A stretch of DNA of 64,000 nt from Alphaproteobacteria bacterium (GCA_965243135.1 OZ251539.1:5344001-5408000); one strand, 5' to 3'. Shown: positions 24,680 through 58,144, counted from the stretch's first letter. Notes: a model not told the origin generated them from the letters alone. Numbers and translations: made by a program.

Positions 24680-24689
24680 GGCGCGGAAT

Positions 24690-24815
24690 TCTTCACGGGG
24701 CCTCTTCACGGGGCCTCTTCACGGGGCCTCTTCACGGGGCCTCTTCACGGGGCCTCTTCACGGGGCCTCTTCACGGGGCCTCTTCACGGGGCCTCTTCAC
24801 GGGGCCTCTTCACGG
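24690..24815 (+). repeat. Perfect 13-bp tandem repeat TCTTCACGGGGCC x9.7
   Basis: Units run from 24690 to 24794 in steps of 13, plus a partial unit at 24807; all identical. Confidence 0.98.
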
Positions 24816-24833
24816 ATCAAGAGGACCCGTTCG

Positions 24834-47447: not shown

Positions 47448-49362
47448 TCGCGCGCTCCGCGCAGGCTCCGGGCGGCGCGGCGGCCGGAAAGCTGATAGGC
47501 GGACATGCCGACCGCGAGAATCGCGCCGGCGGCGTAGGCGTGGTAACGCAGATCCGCTTCGATGCCCGTCGCGGCGGAAACCAGAGGTCCCGCCGGCAAC
47601 AGCAGGCAGGCCGCCGCCGCCGCCCAGATCGGGCGTTCGCAAGGCGTCCTGCGGCCGAGGCCGGAGCCTTCGAGAAACCTGGCCCATGCGACGACGCCGA
47701 GAAAGCAGGCCGCGACGGTGACGGCGACGTCGAGGGGCGTGCCGTCGAGCAGCAGCGGCGTGTAGACGAACAGGAACGGCATGACGAGGATCATCGACGC
47801 GAGTTTCAGAGCCTGGTTGCCCGTCCTGACCGGATCGCCTCCCGAGATCGCGCTCGCCGCGTAGGCGGCGAGCGCCACGGGCGGCGTGACGGCGCTGACC
47901 ACCGCCACCCAGTAGCTGATCATGTGGGCGGCGAGGGTCGGAACCCCCAGTTCGGTCAGGGCGCCGACGGCGAAGATCGCGAGGATCACGTAGCTCGCGA
48001 CGATCGGAAGCCCCATGCCGACGACGTAGCCGGCGACGATCACCCAGAAGATCGTGACCGGCAGCATTTCTCCGCTGGCCGCGACGAGCAGGTGCGAAAT
48101 CCGGCCCGGCAGATCGCTCTGCGTGGCGGCCGACAACAGGATGCCGAGCACGCCGGCGATGCAGCTGACCACGAGGGTGTTGCGCGCTCCGGCTTCGAGG
48201 GAAATCCAGACGGTTCGCCCGAGTTCGGCGAAGGCGTCCCCCAGGCCTCGCGCGGCGCGGGCCTCCTCGCCGACCGCGACGGCGCCCGGAGACGGCGCCC
48301 GGGCCGCGCTCCGCTCTCCGGCGGGTCCGAGCAGCGCGATCTCGCCGATCTTGAGGACGATGAAGGCGAACAACGCCCAATAGGCGGCGTCGTCCGCCCC
48401 GACGCCGATATGGTCGTCGACGAACCAGGTGAAGGGCGGGCCGATCCGCAGGCCGAAGAAATAGACGAGGAGGCCCGCCGCGGCCGATATCGCGAGATAG
48501 GGCTTCCACGAGGTCCGCGAACGCCGCGTCGGGATCGACGCCAGCAGATCGGTCAGCTTCAGCATGACGATCAGGACGATCGTCTTCGCCGCGGCGAGGA
48601 ACGCGGAGTCCCCGGTGACCAGGAGGTAGATCATCGCCGGGATCGGCGTCAGCAGATGGAGGCGGGTCAGAATGTCGCGCCACGGCGGCAATTCGTCCGC
48701 GGACACGCCGTGAAGCCTGTCTTGCCGCGCCCGGAAATACACGATCAGGCCGACGGAAAAGTAGTAGAGAAGAGCGGGAATCGCGGCGATCTTGACGATC
48801 TCGAAGTAGCTCGTCTCCGTCAGCTCGGCCAGCAGGAACGCGCCGGCCCCCATGATCGGCGGCATGTACGCGCCGCCGGTCGAGGCCGCCGCCTCGACTC
48901 CGCCGGCGAATTCCGGCCGGTAGCCCACGCGCTTCATGAGCGGGATCGTGAACGTGCCCGTCGTCATCACGTTCGCCACGCCGCTTCCCGAAATCATGCC
49001 GAAGAAGCCGCTGCTGATGACCGCCGCGAGCCCGGGACCTCCCGTTCGCCGGCCGGTGATCCTGTAGGCCGTGTCGATTATCAGCGCGCCGAGGCCCGTC
49101 TTCTCGAGGAATGCGCCGAGGATCACGAAGATCACGATGAACGTCGCGAACACTTCGGCGATGAGCCCGAGCATGCCCTCGGTCGACAGCATGAGGAACT
49201 CCATGACGCGGGCGGCGCGGTTGCCGGGGTGGTTGAGGACCCCGGGCATGGCCTGGGCGACGACGTCGAAGGAGTAGACGAAGAAAAGGAAGCCGAGCAG
49301 CGGGATGAGCGGCCCGACGATTCGCCGGGCGATCTCGAAACTGACCGCCGCCATCATCACAA
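47444..49362 (-). pseudogene. TRAP fused (4TM/12TM) permease, 5'-truncated
   Basis: SGSGVANVMTTGTFTIP, EAAASTGG..PPIMGAGAF and TPPVALAAY. Homology begins abruptly mid-helix (IVMMAAVSFEIARR) with no RBS. Confidence 0.85.
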
Positions 49363-49483
49363 TGTGATGCGAGCAGTCGTGCAAGCCGGCAACTGTCCCC
49401 CCAGCCAGCGTTCACGCCATGATCAATAGGAGGGGGCAGAGAAGGGACCGTAGCCCGGAAAAGGCCGTTCGTCAACAGACACG

Positions 49484-49603
49484 AAGAAAAAGGGGCCGGT
49501 GATCCCCGACCCCTGATTCGTCTTCGCGAAAACCCGCGCCCCACTGCTGGGACTGCGAACCTCGCAAAACATCGAGTTTCCTCGACAGCATCGCCAAAAG
49601 CTG
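49484..49603 (-). ncRNA. Putative counter-transcribed RNA (ctRNA) of the repC replicon
   Basis: Minus-strand promoter TTGACG-N17-TAATCT and intrinsic terminator AGGGGTCGG-loop-CCGGCCCCT-TTTTCTT (49484-49514), antisense and upstream of repC. Confidence 0.7.
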
Positions 49604-49609
49604 TCGGAG

Positions 49610-49638
49610 AGATTACAGGGATGGTTTGCGCCCGTCAA
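49610..49638 (-). promoter_or_regulatory. Sigma70 promoter for the ctRNA
   Basis: -35 at 49633-38, -10 at 49610-15, 17-bp spacer. Confidence 0.72.
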
Positions 49639-49710
49639 CCGGAATTTTCGGCGGGCCGGAATTTTTTCGCGAAGGGCCGCAAGCCTTTCACCGGGTCGGC
49701 TATTGCGACC

Positions 49711-51078
49711 ATGGATCTCCAGACTTCGGGCAGCGGCGCCTGCCCGGCGGGCGGAAGGCCCCGCCGCGAAATTCACTATCGGGCCGAATCGGCAGCCGCC
49801 GCGTTCATCGGCCTGCCGGAAGGCGACGACCGGTTCGCCGTCGTCCGGTTGCTCAGGGAAGTCGGGCGCGAAGCCGGCTGGACCGGCCGGCTGATCGAGC
49901 ATCTCGAATTGCTGATCGGCTTCACGCGGCCCCAGGACTGGTTCTGCGGACACCGTCCGATCGTTTATCTCCAGGTCCAGTCGGCGGCGGAACGGCTGGG
50001 CCTTTCCGCCTCCCAGATACAGCGCAACGAGAGGCGGCTGATGCAGTTGGGCGCGGTCTCGTTCCGCGACTCCGGCAACTTCCGGCGCTACGGCAAGCGC
50101 GATGGCGACGGTCGGCTCGTGGAGGCGTGGGGGCTCGACCTGTCGCCCTGCGCCGCCCTTCTGCCGCGACTCAAGCAGCTGGCGAAAGAGGCCGCCGCCG
50201 AACGGGAGGAATTCATGCGGCTCAAGCGCCGGATTTCCGCCGCGCGGCGGCGCATCGGGGCGGCCGTCGATTGCGCCGTCGCCGATTCGAAACTGACGGA
50301 GGAGGCGGCCGCCGCGGCTCGCGTCGAGCTGGACCGGCTGACGCCGCGAATCCGGGCGCGGACGCCGCTCGAAGCGTTGCGGCGGCAAGAGGACGGTCTG
50401 GACCGTCTCGACGCGCAACTGGCGGTTGCGATCGGAGCGAAAGAGCCGACCGCGCCGACGCCCGGCGCGCCGCCGGCGCCGGTCGAACGGCCCGAAGATC
50501 TGCTTTCGGGAGCCGCGGAAATGCGGGCCGCGGCCGCCGCAAATGCGGCCCAGGGACCGCATCGATGCGGCACGCAAGAATATTACAATACAAACCAAGA
50601 ATGTACGAATAAAAATATTACCGTAGCCGGGGGCCGCCCGGAAAGAGGAGCGGACCGCGCCGCCGCCGCGCCCGGAGAGCGCGCGGCTGCGGGAGCTTCC
50701 GGCGGCGCGCGGACCGTCTCTTTTACGCTGCTTCTCGACCTGCTCTCCGAAGAATTCTTCGGGTATCTGCCGCCCGGCCGTCGGGTGGGCTGGAGCGAGC
50801 TGATCTCCGCCGCGGGCCTCGTCGCCGCCGATCTCGGGATTTCGCTCCACGCATGGCGCGAAGCCTGTTACCGCCTGGGGAGGCAGACCGCCGCGACCGC
50901 CGTCGTCGTCATCGCCGCCAAGAAGGCGCGGGGCCTGATCGGTTCGCCGGGGGGCTACCTGCGCGGGATCACGCGGCGCGGCCTCGAGGGCGAACTCTAT
51001 CTCGAACGGAGCGTTTTCGGCCTGGCCAAGGGAGAGGACGGCTATCTCGTCCAGGGGCCCGAGGCCCGGTCGGCGTAG
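49711..51078 (+). CDS. repC: Plasmid replication initiator RepC (repABC type)
   Basis: TRPQDW..RPIV, RDSGNFRRYG, WGLDLSP, LGISLHAWREA and SPGGYLRG. An AT-rich patch at about 50575-50622 is consistent with an intragenic oriV. Confidence 0.85.
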   Translation: MDLQTSGSGACPAGGRPRREIHYRAESAAAAFIGLPEGDDRFAVVRLLREVGREAGWTGRLIEHLELLIGFTRPQDWFCGHRPIVYLQVQSAAERLGLSASQIQRNERRLMQLGAVSFRDSGNFRRYGKRDGDGRLVEAWGLDLSPCAALLPRLKQLAKEAAAEREEFMRLKRRISAARRRIGAAVDCAVADSKLTEEAAAAARVELDRLTPRIRARTPLEALRRQEDGLDRLDAQLAVAIGAKEPTAPTPGAPPAPVERPEDLLSGAAEMRAAAAANAAQGPHRCGTQEYYNTNQECTNKNITVAGGRPERGADRAAAAPGERAAAGASGGARTVSFTLLLDLLSEEFFGYLPPGRRVGWSELISAAGLVAADLGISLHAWREACYRLGRQTAATAVVVIAAKKARGLIGSPGGYLRGITRRGLEGELYLERSVFGLAKGEDGYLVQGPEARSA

Positions 51079-51098
51079 GGAGAACGGAGGAGGAGAAC

Positions 51099-51545
51099 AT
51101 GACGGTCCATCGAAAGGGCACGGGACCCCCGGTCTCGTTCTTGTCGTCGAACGCCCCGCGCGGCGGACGGCTCCGCCCGGTCGGAAGCTCCCGGCGCGGT
51201 CCGACGACCGGGAAGCGGCGCCCGTCGCGAGACGAAGGCGCTCGCCGGGAGCGCCGCCCTCCGGACGGCGGCCTTGAACGACGCGCGGCGCCGTGCCGCG
51301 GCGAGCGGCGCCGGACTGCCGAAAGCGTCCGCGCCGCCGGCCCGGAGATCTTTGACGAGGCGAAACCGCGCTCGGCAGGCGGATTCTTTAGGAACCGTCT
51401 GGCGCGGTTTCGGCGGGCGCGGCGCGCGGCGGAAGAACCCGAACGCACGGTGTTACGCGCCGGGCCGTCTGTCGCCATGAACATGGCGACGTGTATGCAG
51501 GGAACGTGCGCAAACGAGCGCGCAGAAGAAGGGAGAAAGTCATGA
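51099..51545 (+). CDS. Hypothetical Arg-rich protein translationally coupled to the recombinase
   Basis: Strong GGAGGAGG RBS; its stop overlaps the recombinase start (ATGA). Confidence 0.55.
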   Translation: MTVHRKGTGPPVSFLSSNAPRGGRLRPVGSSRRGPTTGKRRPSRDEGARRERRPPDGGLERRAAPCRGERRRTAESVRAAGPEIFDEAKPRSAGGFFRNRLARFRRARRAAEEPERTVLRAGPSVAMNMATCMQGTCANERAEEGRKS

Positions 51546-53068
51546 AGGTTTCAAAACGCGTCGCGATCTACGCGCGTTTCAGTTCGTCGCTCCAGAATCC
51601 GAAGTCGATCGAAGACCAGATCGCCCTGTGCGAGCGGCGAATCCGGGAAACGGGCGGCACGGTCGTGGCCACGTTCAAGGACGCCGGGATGTCCGGCGCC
51701 AGCATGCATCTGCGGAAGGGGCTGATCGACCTGCTGACCGCGGTGGAAGAGGGGACGATCGACATGGTTTGGGCGGAGGCCCTCGATCGCCTGAGCCGCG
51801 ATCAGGCGGACATGGTCCAGATCTACCGGCTCCTGCAATTTCACGACGTGGAACTGTGCACGCACGAGGAGGGCGAGGTTTCGGATCTCCATGTCAGCCT
51901 CAAGGGCGTGATCAACGAGACCTTCCGGACGTCGCTCTCCCAAAAGGTGCGGCGCGGCAAGCTGGGCGCCGCGACGCGCGGCCGGGTGCCGGGCCGCAAC
52001 TGCTACGGCTACCGGGTTTTGCCCCGCCTTCCGGGCGAACCCGGCGGGAAACAGGAAATCGTGCCCGAACAAGCGGAGACCGTCCGTCGCATATTCCGCT
52101 TGTACGTCGGCGGAACGGCGCCAAACGAGATCGCCCGGATCCTCAACGAGGAGGGCATTCCGGGTCCGATGGGCAGGGAATGGAGCGAAAGGGGCATCTC
52201 GGGTTGGAGGAAGCGCGGGAGCGGCATCCTGCGCAACAAGCTGTACGCCGGAATTCTGGTGTACGGCCGGACCCGCCGGTTTTCGGACCCCAGGGCGGGG
52301 CAAACCCGACCGCGTTTCGTGCCGGAATCCGAGTGGTCGGTTCGGGAAGTGCCGCATATGCGGATCGTGGACGACGAGCTCTGGCAGCAGGCGCAATTGC
52401 GGGGCTGCGCAGGTTCCGACCGGTCCCGGAGCGGCGGAAAACGCGTTCCGCATCCTCTGACGGGAGTGCTCTCCTGCGCGGTTTGCGGGGGCATCCTCAG
52501 AGTTCGGAACGGCAGAGGCTACACCTGCAAGAGGCAGGACGACAGGCGGGGTTGCGACAACAGGATGCGCATCGACGTCAGGCGGACGGAAGACCGGGCG
52601 CTCCGCGAACTGATCCGGTGGGTGGAATCGTGGCGCGAGGGTTCCGCGCTGCTCGCCTCCGGAATTCGGGAATACGAGCGAAGAAGGGACCGCCTCGAGA
52701 CGAAGATCGTAGACGGGAAGGAGAAGATAGCGCTGCTGGTCGAGAGCATCGAGCGGGGAGGAAAGGAGCCGCGGGCGGTCGCGCGGCGCATCGGCGATCT
52801 GGAGCGGTCGGTCGCCGCCCTGACGATCGAATTGAAGTCCATGCGCCGTCCGGAAGAACGCTCGGCGGCGGACCTGCTTGGGACGCTGAAGTCCGCGCTC
52901 GAGGGGCTCGCCGCCGCCGCCGCTGACGACGACACCCGGCGGGACGCGTTGCTGAAGTTCCGGGACCTGGTCGAGCGAATCGACATCTCGCCGACGGCCG
53001 AAAAGGGAGAGTTCGAGATGACGGTGCGCCCGCGCGTCGACGCGCTTGTCGCGCTGGTTCTCGAATGA
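51542..53068 (+). CDS. Large serine recombinase (resolvase + recombinase + Zn ribbon)
   Basis: AIYARFSS, LDRLSR, YGY, ILRNKLYAG, CAVCG..YTC..GC and a coiled coil. Confidence 0.95.
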   Translation: MKVSKRVAIYARFSSSLQNPKSIEDQIALCERRIRETGGTVVATFKDAGMSGASMHLRKGLIDLLTAVEEGTIDMVWAEALDRLSRDQADMVQIYRLLQFHDVELCTHEEGEVSDLHVSLKGVINETFRTSLSQKVRRGKLGAATRGRVPGRNCYGYRVLPRLPGEPGGKQEIVPEQAETVRRIFRLYVGGTAPNEIARILNEEGIPGPMGREWSERGISGWRKRGSGILRNKLYAGILVYGRTRRFSDPRAGQTRPRFVPESEWSVREVPHMRIVDDELWQQAQLRGCAGSDRSRSGGKRVPHPLTGVLSCAVCGGILRVRNGRGYTCKRQDDRRGCDNRMRIDVRRTEDRALRELIRWVESWREGSALLASGIREYERRRDRLETKIVDGKEKIALLVESIERGGKEPRAVARRIGDLERSVAALTIELKSMRRPEERSAADLLGTLKSALEGLAAAAADDDTRRDALLKFRDLVERIDISPTAEKGEFEMTVRPRVDALVALVLE

Positions 53069-53113
53069 CCGCAGGCCGCCGGAAGCCGAGAGGCTTCCGG
53101 CGGCCTGCCCGCT

Positions 53114-53752
53114 TCAGTCGGCCCGCGCCAATTCGTCGAGCAGCGCGGCGCTCGCGCGGCGCAGGAGTTCCAGCGCGAGTTCCGGCGGCGGCGGCCGTTC
53201 GATCCACTGGATTTCGCAAAGGAGGTAGCCGGGGCCGGCCAGCCAGGCGATGCCCCTCGAATCGTCGATCTCGTCGTCGTCGACCGCGACGCCGTCCGGG
53301 TCGCAACCGACGATCCGGCAAACGAATTGCGGGCTGCCCATATGGACGAGGTATTCCCGCCGGTCGTCCTCCCCGTGCGCGAACAGCCACTCGTCCGGCG
53401 GTCTCCGCGTTTCCGGCTCGCCGGTTCCGTCCGCGATGCGGCAGACCAGCGCCGGCGTCGCCAGGTGAACGACATAGTTCCGCCACTTGCCGGAGGCGTC
53501 CTTCGGGCCGCGCGCGTACAGCCAGTCGTCGCGCCGGAATTCCGGCACGGGCGCGGTGCGGAGGCGGTAGAACTCTTCGAAGCGGGCCCGGTATTCGGGC
53601 GGGATCGGGCAGACGCCGCCCGCCCAGCCGCGGGCGTCGGCGAGAGGAATGGAGAAGGATTCGGCGACCGCCCCGACGGCATCGAGCGACGGGCCGCAAG
53701 CGACGACCGCGAACGCGCGGAATCGGGCGGATGTCCAGTGTCTGTCGTTCAC
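53114..53752 (-). CDS. Hypothetical protein with an HTH-like N-terminus and a duplicated YxVH..P..VCRI domain
   Basis: WLYARG..YVVHLATPALVCRI and WLFAHG..YLVHMGSPQFVCRI. Start uncertain. Confidence 0.65.
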   Translation of the reverse strand: MNDRHWTSARFRAFAVVACGPSLDAVGAVAESFSIPLADARGWAGGVCPIPPEYRARFEEFYRLRTAPVPEFRRDDWLYARGPKDASGKWRNYVVHLATPALVCRIADGTGEPETRRPPDEWLFAHGEDDRREYLVHMGSPQFVCRIVGCDPDGVAVDDDEIDDSRGIAWLAGPGYLLCEIQWIERPPPPELALELLRRASAALLDELARAD

Positions 53753-53985
53753 GGCAGGTCTGCGCCCCCATGCCGGGAAGTGCTGCTCGACTTCCGGCGG
53801 GGAGCCCCTCGGACCGACGGCGGCTCCGCGCCCGGAAGCGCACGGCGCCGAATGATGGTAGGTTGCGGCGGAATGGTCAAACGGGTTTTTTTCGGACGGG
53901 GCGTTCGCCTTGACTCGCCGGCCGACCCGTCGATAGGGGGGCGTTTCCAAACGTTCTTGCGTGGAAAAGTAAAGGAGAATGACAG

Positions 53986-54941
53986 ATGGGCAGGGCATTC
54001 GTGGTCAAGGCTGTGCATGACGGTTTTCCTGTCGAAGGCGTACCAGCTCGCGGCGGGACATGCGCGCATCGGGTGGTCCAGTCTGGACAGCCAGGATCTG
54101 CGCGTCGTTCAGCGGAATCTGGAGCAGGGACATGGCCTCGACGACGATCAGGAAGACGCGAAGAGGTGTCGCGGTTTCCTCACCGAAGTGGGCGCAGGCG
54201 ATCTTCTCCTTTATCCGCATCAGCCGGCGAGAGATCAGTTCACGGTCGTGCGGGTGACCGGCGACTACGGTTACGATAGCGGATTGGAGAAAGACTTTCG
54301 GTCGTTTCGGCCGTGCGAGCTCGTCACTCCGAAACCGGTGTCGCGGTACGATGAAATCGTCCCTTCCTCGCTGCGTCACCGAATGGTGCGTCCAGGCCGT
54401 TTTTCCGAGGTAAGCGATACCGGTCCGTTGCGGGACTGCCTCGATCGCCTGTCGAAATCTGGACGTGACCAAGACGGTACGAACAGTGCAGCTCTCACAC
54501 GCATCCACGAGAAATTGAGAGAATCGCTTCCCGGTCAGCAAGAGTTCAGCAGAACCGACCTTTCGCGCAAGTTTTGCGCGGAACTGTCGCATGGGGTATT
54601 TCTGCGAACTGCAGGAAGGGCCTGCCGAGGCGGGTTCGGACATCGTCCTCACCGTCGGTGACCGTTTCCTGCCTGATAACGTCAACTTCAGGGTTGGCGT
54701 GCAGATTTTTTCCTACAAGGACTCGGTCGACGAACACGCGCTTAAAGAGAAGTTGGAACAACTTCTGCAAGGCTGGAAACGGAACGATTACGGAGCGCTT
54801 CTGACGACGGGCCGTTGCGACGAGGAGGCGGTGGCGATGCTTCGTCGTCACAATACGGACGATCGCCAACGACCGGTCAGGTTGATCGACGGCGACGAGC
54901 TTGCCGTTCTGCAGCATTTCCCGCCAGGGGGCGGGACCTGA
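53986..54941 (+). pseudogene. Mrr-like restriction endonuclease, frameshifted
   Basis: RIGW, GDLLLYP and VTGDYGY; then in a shifted frame MGY..EAGSDIV..GVQ..LTTG..VRLIDGDEL (Mrr_cat pattern). Confidence 0.75.
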
Positions 54942-55432
54942 CGGACGGCGCAACCGCGGCCTCCGGGTTCGCCAACGCGGGAAAGACAACTGCGCCAGCC
55001 GACGGGTCGGCGTGCGCTACGACAGGTTTTCCGCGTGGTTCCGGAAAGGCGGATCGCCGGTTCGGAACGCAGCACCGTTCGCCAGGCGGCGCCTGCCGGA
55101 CATGCCGGCCGTGCGACGGCGCATCGCGCCGTCCTCTTCGCCAACTTCCACGCCGTTCGTCTCGACAATGGCCGTCGTCGATAATGCCGGAGGGCCGGTC
55201 GTTCAAGCATCCTGTCGCGCACTCGTGACGGCGGACGGTTTCAGGCGATCCGCGCCGGCAATTCCTCTCGCTGCCGCGGGTTGTTGCCCAGGCAAGCGGT
55301 CGAAAGGTAAAACGGCGAAGCGCTTTGTCTGGCCGGGCGACGCCCGCCATTGCCGGAGGCTCCCCGGGCATCCCCCGGTCGGCCGCCGGAGACGGGGCAG
55401 GCGGCGTTCGCGCGTTGTGGAAGCAGCTGGTT

Positions 55433-57166
55433 ATGGAGACAGTACGGACCGGGCGCAGCCCAAGCGCCCTCGGGGAACAACTGGCGCCGGTGCTGTTGCG
55501 AATGCGGCGGGCGCGGGTCGAACCCGTGTGCCAGGTGACGATGTCGGTTCCAACCGACGATGTCTATGCAACGTTCGGCGCGACGCGGACCGAGGCGCTG
55601 CGGTGGATGCAGGAACGAGCGGGCCGACGGTTGCCGGCCGAGGCGTGGGACGGCGGCAGTTTCGATCTGGCCGATATCGGGGCGCCGCGGACGGAGGCGA
55701 CGTTCCTCGAAGAAATCGGCTACTGGGCGGGGCGGGTGGACGCCGTCGACGCGACCGCGCCGGAACGTTCCAGAGATACCGTCGGATTCAAGTCCATAAT
55801 CTAAATATTTGTGGACGCCGTCGACGCGACCGCGCCGGAACGTTCCTGGACCACCGAAACCGCGGTCGCGAAGGTCGCCGGGACGATCAGGTTCGGCGCG
55901 CGCCTCACCTGCGTCGTCCGCGGGGAAAGCGAGCCGTTCGTTCCGTCGGTTCCCGGGCCCGTGAAGCAGGTCGTCGACGGATGCGGCGGCGTTCTCGACG
56001 GCCGGTCGATCGGCGGGGGGCCCTGGCTCGTCGATACGCCGGAAAAGGCGTCTCGGCTCGTCGAGTTTATGTCCAGTCCCGAGCGCCAATGCGACGTTCT
56101 CGCTATTTCGACTCGGGGTTCGAGCGACGATCCCGACGCCACCCTGATTCAGGCCCGATCCGTGTTCGAGCGGACGATCGGAGCCGCCCATGTCGTCGTC
56201 CTCACGGCGACGGGCACCTACGCCCTGACCGAGCTGGTCGGAAAGGAGCTGTCGGTCTTCCGGCAGGCCGTCCGGACGTACAGGCCTGGTTTCGATCCGG
56301 AAGGCGCGGCGCCTCGCGAACATCCGTTGGCGCTCGGCATGCGCATAGCGGACTGGCCGGGGGGACCGTCCGGTTTCGAGGATTTCCTCGTGGCCAGCTG
56401 CCTGCGCGGCACCGTCGACCGGCCCGATCGCGAACGCCTGCTGCCGTCCTATGTCGCGGTCAAGCAGGCCGCGCAGAAGTTGCGCAAGAAAACCGCGGCC
56501 GCCGGTTCGATAACGGACTCCGAGCGCGTGGCGGTGCTGGAAAACGAAGAGCTCAGGAGGGACAACCAGGATTACGAAGCCCTGCTCGAGATCGCCGAAG
56601 AGGAGCTGAGCCAGGTTCGGGACGAGCGCGACGCCGCGAGAGGCGAAATCTGGCGCCTCAAGAACCGGGTCGAATATCTGGAGCGGCAGGACATCCGGGG
56701 CCCGGTTGCCAAAGACGAAATACCGGACGCTTTCGACGATCTGGAACGATGGGCGGCGCAGCATCTGGCCGGGAAGGTGACGCTTACCGGCCGCGCGATA
56801 CGGGCCGCGAAGGATTCGCCGTTCGAGGATGCGCGTCTCGCTTATCGCGCGCTCCTCATCCTGCGGGACCGCTACGTTCCCATGCGCCGGGAGGGCGGTC
56901 TCGATCTGAAGGAGGCGTACCGAAAGGCGCTGGAGAAGGAAGCGCTTCAGGAGCAGCCGACGTTCGCGGGAACGAGATCCGGGGAGCACGGAGACGTTTA
57001 TTTCGTCAGGCACGGGGGGAGAAGGCGGGAACTCGACCTGCACCTGAAAGGAAGCGACTCCCGGGATCCACGTTTCGGCTTTCGCCTGTACTTTTTCTGG
57101 GACAACGAGAACGAGGAGGTCGTCGTGGGTTCGTTACCGAACCACCTCAAGACGAGAATCACCTGA
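55433..57166 (+). pseudogene. Coiled-coil protein with RelE-like C-terminus (putative defence effector), interrupted by a 75-bp insertion
   Basis: Both ORF halves are in the same frame; the stop at 55802-04 lies inside the insert. C-terminus HLKG..DPRFGFRLYFFWD..VVVGSLPNHL. Confidence 0.72.
55736..55846 (+). repeat. 36-bp perfect direct repeat flanking a 39-bp unique AT-rich insert
   Basis: GTGGACGCCGTCGACGCGACCGCGCCGGAACGTTCC at 55736-71 and 55811-46. Confidence 0.97.
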
Positions 57167-57550
57167 ACGGCGACTGGCCGGGCGTCCCGGAGGTCGGCTG
57201 AACTGCCGGCGACATCGGCTTGCGGTCTGTTTCGACCTCTTGCGCCCGGAGAGCCGGGCGGCGGAGGGATCGGCCGTTCCTTCGACGAGCGCTACGGAAA
57301 ATGTCTGGACTTTCATGCGGCTTCGCGGAAGCCAATTCCTTGCAGGAACTTTCGGGATCCGCCGGAAAGTCGGAATGCTTGCCTGCCCATCCCGCCGCCA
57401 AGGGCGAACGCATTCGAGGAAGCGGAGGTCCGAATCGTGGCGGCGGGCGGCCGAAAAAATGATCGTTCACGACTTCGTTTCAGCCAATGGCGCGGCGGGA
57501 TCTCCACGAGACGATCCGGTACGATGGCGCACGCGGGGGGCGGTCGTCCG

Positions 57551-58144
57551 ATGAAGATTTTCCTTGTTCTTGCGCTCGTTTTGGCAGTGCAAGGCGGATC
57601 GGCAGCGGCCCAGACATTCGAGGAATCCGAAGCGGCCTATAACCGCGGCGATTACACCACGGCTTTACAAGGCTTTCGACGGCTTGCCGAACAGGGAAAC
57701 GCTGGCGCTCAGTACAACCTCGGGGTTATGTACGCCCGCGGCGAGGGCGTTCCGAAGGGTGCCGCAGAGGCGGCGAAGTGGCACCGCCGCGCCGCCGAGC
57801 AGGGGGAAGCCGAAGCTCAGGCCATCCTCGGGGTGATGTACTCCCAAGGCACGAGCGTCCCGCAGGACGACACGGAAGCTGCGAAGTGGTATCGCCGGGC
57901 CGCCGAGCAGGGACACGCCGGAGCTCAGCACCTCCTCGCGGGCATGTACTACCAAGGCACGGACGCTCCGAAAGATGACGCCGAGGCGGCGGGCCGACAA
58001 AAAAATGGCACAGCGCAAACGGCTCAAGTTGCGGTCGGGGTGACGGAAATCCACAGTAATGCTGTCCTAATCTCAAACCACAAGAACACTATCCAAAGGG
58101 ACAGATTTCGTGTGGTTGCACAGGATGGGGTTGTCTGTGAATGA
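57551..58144 (+). pseudogene. Secreted Sel1-repeat protein, truncated at about 57990
   Basis: Signal peptide; three Sel1 units (AQYNLGVMY..G.GVP..EAAKW.RRAAEQG); the frame then runs into an IS end. Confidence 0.88.
57985..58026 (+). repeat. Orphan copy of the IS right end also present at 61334-61375
   Basis: GGCGGCGGGCCGACAAAAAAATGGCACAGCGCAAACG(G/C)CTCA, 41 of 42 identical. Confidence 0.9.

Follow-up and report, generated by a model that had tools for sequence, protein, structure and literature searches.

A likely off-target CRISPR spacer integration splits a HEC-07 candidate defence gene in an alphaproteobacterial genome

Introduction

What process copies a short piece of a gene perfectly and places between the two copies a few dozen bases that occur nowhere else in the genome? 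The question is raised by a structure in a 64,000-nt stretch of an alphaproteobacterial genome (OZ251539.1, positions 5344001-5408000; hereafter the window), where a 36-bp segment of coding sequence is duplicated around a 39-bp insert. A reading made from the sequence only had proposed that Cas1-Cas2 integrated a CRISPR spacer off target at this site, and had named the scar of an insertion sequence (IS) and an assembly artefact as alternatives.

Off-target ('neo-CRISPR') integration by type I-E Cas1-Cas2 was reportedly described in E. coli by Nivala, Shipman and Church in 2018. The proteins are said to have been over-produced in the laboratory, and off-target sites reportedly can seed new arrays. 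For nature, what is recounted of that work is reportedly only circumstantial evidence from two other species. Here, we estimate a probability of about 85% that the structure in the window is a natural, fixed off-target CRISPR spacer integration. It is most likely one of about sixteen misplaced spacer units in this genome.

Results

Structure of the insertion and its empty site

The features of the locus are collected in Table 1. The two 36-nt copies are 100% identical, start 75 nt apart, and lie at exactly the coordinates first given for them. They can be extended on neither side, the bases beyond them being G and T on the left and A and T on the right. A perfect pair of 36-mers at such spacing cannot have arisen by chance. 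We likewise confirmed the composition of the insert, with a GC content of 0.33 (13/39) versus 0.65 genome-wide, and the stop codon that it adds in the frame of the gene. Both 36-mer copies code VDAVDATAPERS in the frame that yields a sensible protein, which agrees with the frame chosen by the sequence-only reading. A second long frame over the region was rejected as arginine-rich noise typical of a high-GC genome.

The genome is a single contig of 6.10 Mb. It holds the 39-mer once and the 36-mer three times, namely the two window copies and a third at genome 351995-352030 in a paralogous element. Palindromes are present in the duplicated segment, as had been pointed out, but the longest of them, the 10-bp GGAACGTTCC, is not unusual (p ~0.06 versus random genome 37-mers). 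There is no inverted repeat at the ends of the 39-mer. We considered an RNA origin for the 39-mer, in which a GGATTCAAGTCC stretch resembles a T-arm, and rejected it: no Rfam match appeared up to E = 1 and the tRNA search found none. A consensus scan found no promoter made by the AT-rich insert.

Comparing the genome with itself revealed that the site lies in the second copy of an 8.6-kb segment found at genome 345610-354174. Identity between the two copies is 96.3% over window positions 49355-55771 and 90.9% over 55811-57987, with the alignment stopping at 55771 and resuming at 55811. Since the paralogous segment has one 36-mer and no insert, the structure in the window is an insertion with target duplication, adding 75 bp in all. 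We took the paralogue as the empty site because a search of 40 relatives gave none: the element and the gene were absent from them, bar one marginal 56-nt match. According to Pfam, the split gene is accompanied by genes for a RepC-like replication protein, a large serine recombinase, a Sel1-repeat protein, and a trypsin-like peptidase. The 8.6-kb segment thus has the appearance of an integrated mobile element.

Table 1. Features of the locus, resident CRISPR arrays, and comparable loci. Positions are those of the window unless preceded by g (genome). Sums such as 37+39 give duplication plus insert length.
Feature	Position	Strand	Description	Evidence or context
Twice-present segment	49355..57987	+	about 8.6 kb	self-comparison, Pfam
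RepC-like gene in 8.6-kb segment	49621-51078			Pfam
Large serine recombinase gene in 8.6-kb segment	51491-53068			Pfam
HEC-07 gene and start of Sel1-repeat gene			further content of 8.6-kb segment	Pfam/PADLOC
5' fragment of HEC-07 homologue	55325..55804	+	open to the insert's stop	profile positions 9-107 = g 5399481-5399771
Left target copy	55736..55771	+	36 bp, codes VDAVDATAPERS	once only in paralogue
Spacer-like insert	55772..55810	+	39 bp, 33% GC, TAA at 55802-55804	unique in genome
Right target copy	55811..55846	+	36 bp, first codon GTG	identical to left copy
3' fragment of HEC-07 homologue	55811..57166	+	451 codons, same frame	profile positions 96-553, E 5.6e-141
Array A1	g 5265306-5272800		114 repeats of 36 nt, spacers 29-31 nt (113/113)	beside cas9
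Array A2	g 5284180-5287867		48 repeats of 37 nt, spacers 37-44 nt (39 nt in 7/47)	III-B
Array A3	g 5302437-5307163		78 repeats of 28 nt, spacers 33-34 nt	I-E-like
E2	g 3444841		37+39, insert 38% GC	empty site in alignment with relatives
E3	g 2242318		37+35, in frame in a 1457-codon frame, adds 24 codons	
E4	g 2822593		37+39, copies differ at 2 positions	
E5	g 5486220		36+41, copies differ at 2 positions	paralogues without insert
Period-61 loci	g 385672, 973349, 1912721, 1922849, 2208565, 2510624			
Period-61 loci, continued	g 2545732, 2742314, 2992257, 4477871, 4812993, 5621020			

The interrupted gene

By profile comparison, the broken gene is a homologue of HEC-07, a candidate defence gene of the PADLOC collection with a RelE-like RNase domain. 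The product of the intact paralogue matched the HEC-07 profile PDLC04161 of PADLOC over positions 9-553 (E 6.8e-169) and had no Pfam match. The available text of the source on HEC-07 lists AdoMetDC-like, thioredoxin-like, and RelE-family RNase domains (bioRxiv 10.1101/2024.01.29.577857). The window copy matches the same profile in two pieces, as listed in Table 1. Without the 75 bp, the frame in the window becomes the 588-codon frame of the paralogue, and the insertion is therefore the sole visible lesion. Although the added 75 bp preserve the frame, their TAA truncates the gene at roughly a quarter of its full length. We infer that the split gene is inactive. The knockout of a putative toxic effector had been suggested for this site; the interruption by a stop codon stands, but the profile match assigns the gene to a candidate defence family.

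Across the genome, the HEC-07 profile gave 13 matches at about seven places, comprising one intact gene, the split gene, and several fragments. The sole intact copy lies at 351740-353347. HEC-07-like pieces, some with stops, lie at genome 2233081-2234657, 2954626-2955345, 5411355-5411810, 377901-378246, and 654127-654306.

Resident CRISPR modules and sister events

The window has no cas gene, as first stated. The Cas1-Cas2 modules of the genome form three loci, located 92-135 kb upstream of the site, and every one of these comprises a CRISPR array with its own cas1. Neighbouring A2 are cmr2, cmr3, cmr4, a cmr6-cmr1 fusion, a CARF gene, cas1 (345 aa, E 4e-72), and cas2 (E 8.8e-17), the last two both being full-length open frames. 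On the basis of the cmr genes, cas1, and cas2, we classified A2 as type III-B. A Cse1-like gene near A3 scored 62 bits, under the curated 70.

Further loci of the same kind, for which the sequence-only reading had proposed a search, do exist. A whole-genome scan for direct repeats around a unique insert recovered four more with the geometry of A2 (E2 to E5), having 36-37-bp duplications and 35-41-bp inserts, in addition to the loci with a period of 61 described below. Empty-site comparators are available for three of the four (E2, E3, and E5). E2 replaces the final four codons of a conserved 304-codon frame, at the 3' end of which it lies, and 6/40 searched relatives align there with a single 37-mer and a 76-nt gap. 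For E3, the 35-nt insert is identical to its donor at genome 565156-565190, and a paralogue at genome 2964789-2964824 is the empty site. Because donor and target share three bases, the split of E3 is ambiguous between 37+35 and 34+38. None of the inserts of the five A2-geometry loci, that of the HEC-07 site included, is related to another or to any array spacer.

Some candidates from the scan were dropped as not CRISPR-like, namely those at genome 3808905 (44+37), 3805637 (33+39), 5962652 (three 38-nt copies within a larger repeat), and 1915589/1937344 (a repeated element). Separately, genome 122341-122574 consists of three copies of a 76-bp unit, which form a perfect plain tandem repeat rather than a repeat-spacer structure.

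Fit of the insertion to each module

We compared the 36+39 geometry with each resident module. Relative to A2, the duplication is one base short of all 48 repeats and the insert falls inside the range of spacer lengths. The insert falls outside the spacer range of A3. The host does possess Cas1-Cas2 with repeats near 36 bp, as the proposal of an integration presupposed, but the best-fitting system (III-B) has 37-nt rather than 36-nt repeats. By analogy, a one-base slip in duplication length at a foreign target is plausible, and the accessible portion of a type II-A study addresses repeat elements that control proper repeat length (PMC6895254).

The target and the A2 repeat share 16/36 identities, a weak resemblance (p ~0.03), and only 3/15 matched over the last 15 leader bases; the targets of E2 and E3 resemble the A2 repeat at chance level. 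The longest palindromes of the targets span 18 bp in E2 (p < 0.002) and the above-mentioned 10 bp at the HEC-07 site, with none in E3. None of the 47 A2 spacers (GC content 0.40-0.77) is as poor in GC as the insert (0.33). The 39-mer is also unrelated to the insert of E2, with a best local match of 12 nt with 2 mismatches. Judged by these geometries, the III-B Cas1-Cas2 in particular is most likely the integrase involved, and if off-target integration is granted, we regard its responsibility as probable.

The type II (Cas9) Cas1-Cas2 could have acted in its place by an otherwise identical mechanism, integrating an abnormally long prespacer. Its cas1 adjoins cas9, and the 36-nt repeat of A1 exactly equals the duplication both here and in E5. 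However, the 39-nt insert lies 8 nt outside the range of 29-31 nt that holds for all 113 A1 spacers, and the genome scan found no 36+30 locus outside the array. The sister events also speak against type II: the duplications of E2 and E4 are 37 bp and that of E3 is 34-37 bp, with inserts of 39, 39, and 35 nt, respectively, while E5 has a 41-nt insert despite its 36-bp duplication. We therefore consider an integration by the type II module improbable.

Loci with a period of 61

Outside the arrays, we found 12 loci with a period of 61, which corresponds to a type I-E geometry. Each has 2-11 repeats of 28-29 nt with unique spacers of 32-33 nt. Two of the loci duplicate each other, and all are far from cas genes. 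The repeats differ from locus to locus, with a CGCGCG-like centre in common. The period of 61 was the only enriched one that was neither a multiple of 3 nor of a 13-bp tandem repeat. Other periods not divisible by three were represented by 0-5 loci, and those with multiple loci were multiples of the 13-bp repeat or 2 x 61.

A chromosomal copy elsewhere was identified for 14/23 distinct period-61 spacers, in 12 cases over 32-33 nt with 0-2 mismatches. The two bases beside one end of these 12 donors were AA in 6, AT in 3, and TT, AG, and GC in 1 each. For the counts of AA (6/12) and AT (3/12), we obtained binomial P of 3.6e-6, based on a genome frequency of 0.041 for AA, and 2.2e-8, noting that the 12 flanks are not fully independent because four of the spacers share one locus. 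Two canonical A3 spacers match the chromosome as well (33/33 and 28/33), and both donors have AA on the same side as the period-61 donors, the flank of the 28/33 match having been reached by extending the match coordinates. Ungapped identity to the A3 repeat proved an unreliable guide to the orientation of the period-61 repeats, owing to the palindromic centres of the latter, and the flanks were therefore tallied in the sense of the genome strand.

When the arrays are read on the + strand, the A-rich donor flank is on the same side for all 12 spacers that have a full-length donor; these spacers come from 9 loci, including one duplicated pair. The canonical A3 array has its A-rich flank on that same side too, whereas random orientation would give a mixture. 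Taken together, fixed-length copied fragments, a PAM-like flank, and repeat-length duplication are the signature of Cas1-Cas2, and we know of no other process with that combination.

We also considered the terminus as a hot spot for self-derived donors. This idea was rejected: 5/14 located donors fall at 4.66-4.94 Mb, and GC skew places the terminus near 1.65 Mb and the origin near 5.16 Mb.

Public contigs and the search for a donor

Spanning sequence was sought in public contigs. The junctions are present in contigs of two studies. In one run (X7), a 99-nt contig spans 55742-55840 with zero differences. Nine nearby positions in this run depart from the window sequence, implying that a somewhat different strain bears the identical insertion. 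In a second run (X6), three contigs span both junctions and the insert with zero differences. A run of the other study (X10), labelled as another organism, contributed a contig covering 55300-55779, which enters the insert by 8 nt and has 4 differences in 480. A contig from a sponge metagenome (X1) skips exactly the 75 nt from 55736 to 55810. Its substitutions at 55869 and 55871 are those of the paralogue, so this contig may represent the paralogue and does not count as an independent empty site.

The contigs of X6 break exactly at 55772 and 55810. One 39-nt contig is the 39-mer itself, and another extends past 55810 for 255 nt that are absent from the genome. From the contig break points, a depth difference (about 2 in 41), and a single loose end, we read the 39-mer as also occurring in a second context, at low depth, in that sample. 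This second context may be the donor of the 39-mer.

Searches of viral, genome, and metagenome contig collections gave no exact match to the 39-mer, and phages and plasmids gave only matches at chance level (E 6-7). The 39-mer of E2 had no match in viral or metagenome contigs. A 30-letter stretch of the X6 continuation was absent from the organism's own genome, from viral contigs, and from genome contigs, with only chance matches in plasmids and phages. Since no collection gave a donor, the protospacer context and PAM of the 39-mer could not be read. We infer that the 39-bp donor was foreign DNA.

These data bear on the possibility of a transposable-element scar, in which an insertion with a 36-bp duplication was followed by a deletion that left 39 bp of the element's ends. 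A few IS families make long target duplications (the sequence-only reading had named IS1182, IS1634, and IS1202), and they share with the present locus a direct duplication around inserted DNA. The X6 continuation, being absent from the genome, could in principle be part of a larger element. Yet the 39-mer is unique in the genome, lacks terminal inverted repeats, and is unlike the inserts of the sister loci, and is thus not the end of a multicopy IS. Unlike the products of such families, the present locus has no transposase, inverted ends, or copy family. Five events share one geometry with unrelated inserts, and the lengths of these inserts follow the lengths of the host's CRISPR spacers. Moreover, the insert of E3 exactly reproduces an ordinary chromosomal site, not an element end, and X6 breaks at both ends of the 39-mer, unlike a left junction shared with a full-length element. 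A transposon scar is accordingly very improbable.

Another way to produce such a structure would be an accident of repair or replication, whereby a tandem duplication acquires filler DNA from break repair with no integrase involved. The insert of E3, templated from another chromosomal site, is reminiscent of templated insertions. An accident, however, leaves unexplained both the five events with 36-37-bp duplications and 35-41-bp inserts and the twelve 28+33 loci, each geometry matching a resident CRISPR module, as well as the AA/AT donor flanks. We find this explanation hardly credible. An assembly or library artefact, the other alternative raised at the outset, has a negligible probability given that nothing was found in its favour, that junction contigs occur in the runs of two studies and in strains several substitutions from the window, and that an artefact would not yield a perfect 36-bp target duplication.

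Discussion

Off-target spacer integration is supported by the geometry of the site, its empty counterpart, the presence of cas1 and cas2 in the host, and the sister events. We propose that a Cas1-Cas2 integrase, with the type III-B (Cmr) locus as its most likely source, would have loaded a 39-bp foreign AT-rich fragment. Instead of acting at the leader-repeat junction of its array, it would have made two staggered strand transfers 36 bp apart in the HEC-07 homologue. Gap repair would then have duplicated the 36 bp, creating the repeat-spacer-repeat arrangement.

The proposed event resembles the neo-CRISPR integrations of E. coli in that a non-CRISPR target segment as long as a repeat is duplicated on either side of an insert of spacer length. 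It differs in being fixed in a wild genome with empty-site comparators, in showing a III-B-like geometry besides that of type I-E, and in that some units are inside coding sequences. Off-target sites have also been studied in vitro with Pyrococcus furiosus Cas1-Cas2, where, according to the available part of the report, they share specific features with the repeat (PMC6698737). Both cases would involve integration into non-CRISPR DNA, in which the enzyme and features of the target sequence together determine the spacing. In contrast to the P. furiosus sites, the HEC-07 target is only weakly repeat-like (16/36).

Isolated or orphan arrays offer another comparison. They are small, far from cas genes, and have non-canonical repeats, a description that fits the 11-repeat locus at 2742314. 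Three origins have been proposed for isolated arrays, off-target acquisition among them, according to the portion consulted of one article (PMC13142298, citing Shmakov et al. 2020). Unlike isolated arrays, the HEC-07 unit stands singly within a gene and has plain coding sequence for its 'repeat', and a paralogue still shows the site as it was before the insertion.

On a more speculative note, it is possible, though we would bet against it, that this genome documents adaptation gone astray on a scale undescribed for a wild organism. Such a view would comprise about sixteen fixed off-target loci from two modules, the first natural cases with III-B geometry, units in protein-coding genes, and an off-target site grown to an 11-repeat array. 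It would further hold that Cas1-Cas2 is a recurrent natural mutagen and gives rise to new arrays, and that the HEC-07 insertion may be kept because it silences a RelE-type toxin gene on a mobile element. The term 'neo-CRISPR' turned up in one paper in a literature search that was thin on subscription journals, so similar published cases are possible.

If the reading as off-target integration is true, errors of adaptation can break or remodel genes, in one case a candidate immune gene, and their products would be plausible intermediates in the birth of new CRISPR arrays. The genome lends itself to such study in that empty sites are kept in paralogues and relatives, many donors are identified, and the donors have a PAM-like flank. 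It also combines two enzyme geometries, and provides a natural data set on the targets that erring adaptation integrases accept.

Additional observations on repeats

Some of the repeats have further peculiarities. The 11-repeat locus (2742314-2742951) has two repeat variants, …GACGCGCC and …GACGTGCC. An internal 122-bp duplication makes its spacers 7 and 9 identical. Four spacers of the locus are copies of chromosomal sites, and three of these sites lie within 4.66-4.74 Mb. The 29-nt repeat of the 2992257 locus occurs as single copies at genome 2794036-2794064 and 2945679-2945707, which are probably paralogous empty sites of that locus. Finally, the 13-bp tandem repeat TTCACGGGGCCTC and its complement reach up to about 35 copies and occupy window positions 24689-24816, with similar 13-bp arrays at genome 239257-239683, 5220821-5221286, and 5459003-5459127.
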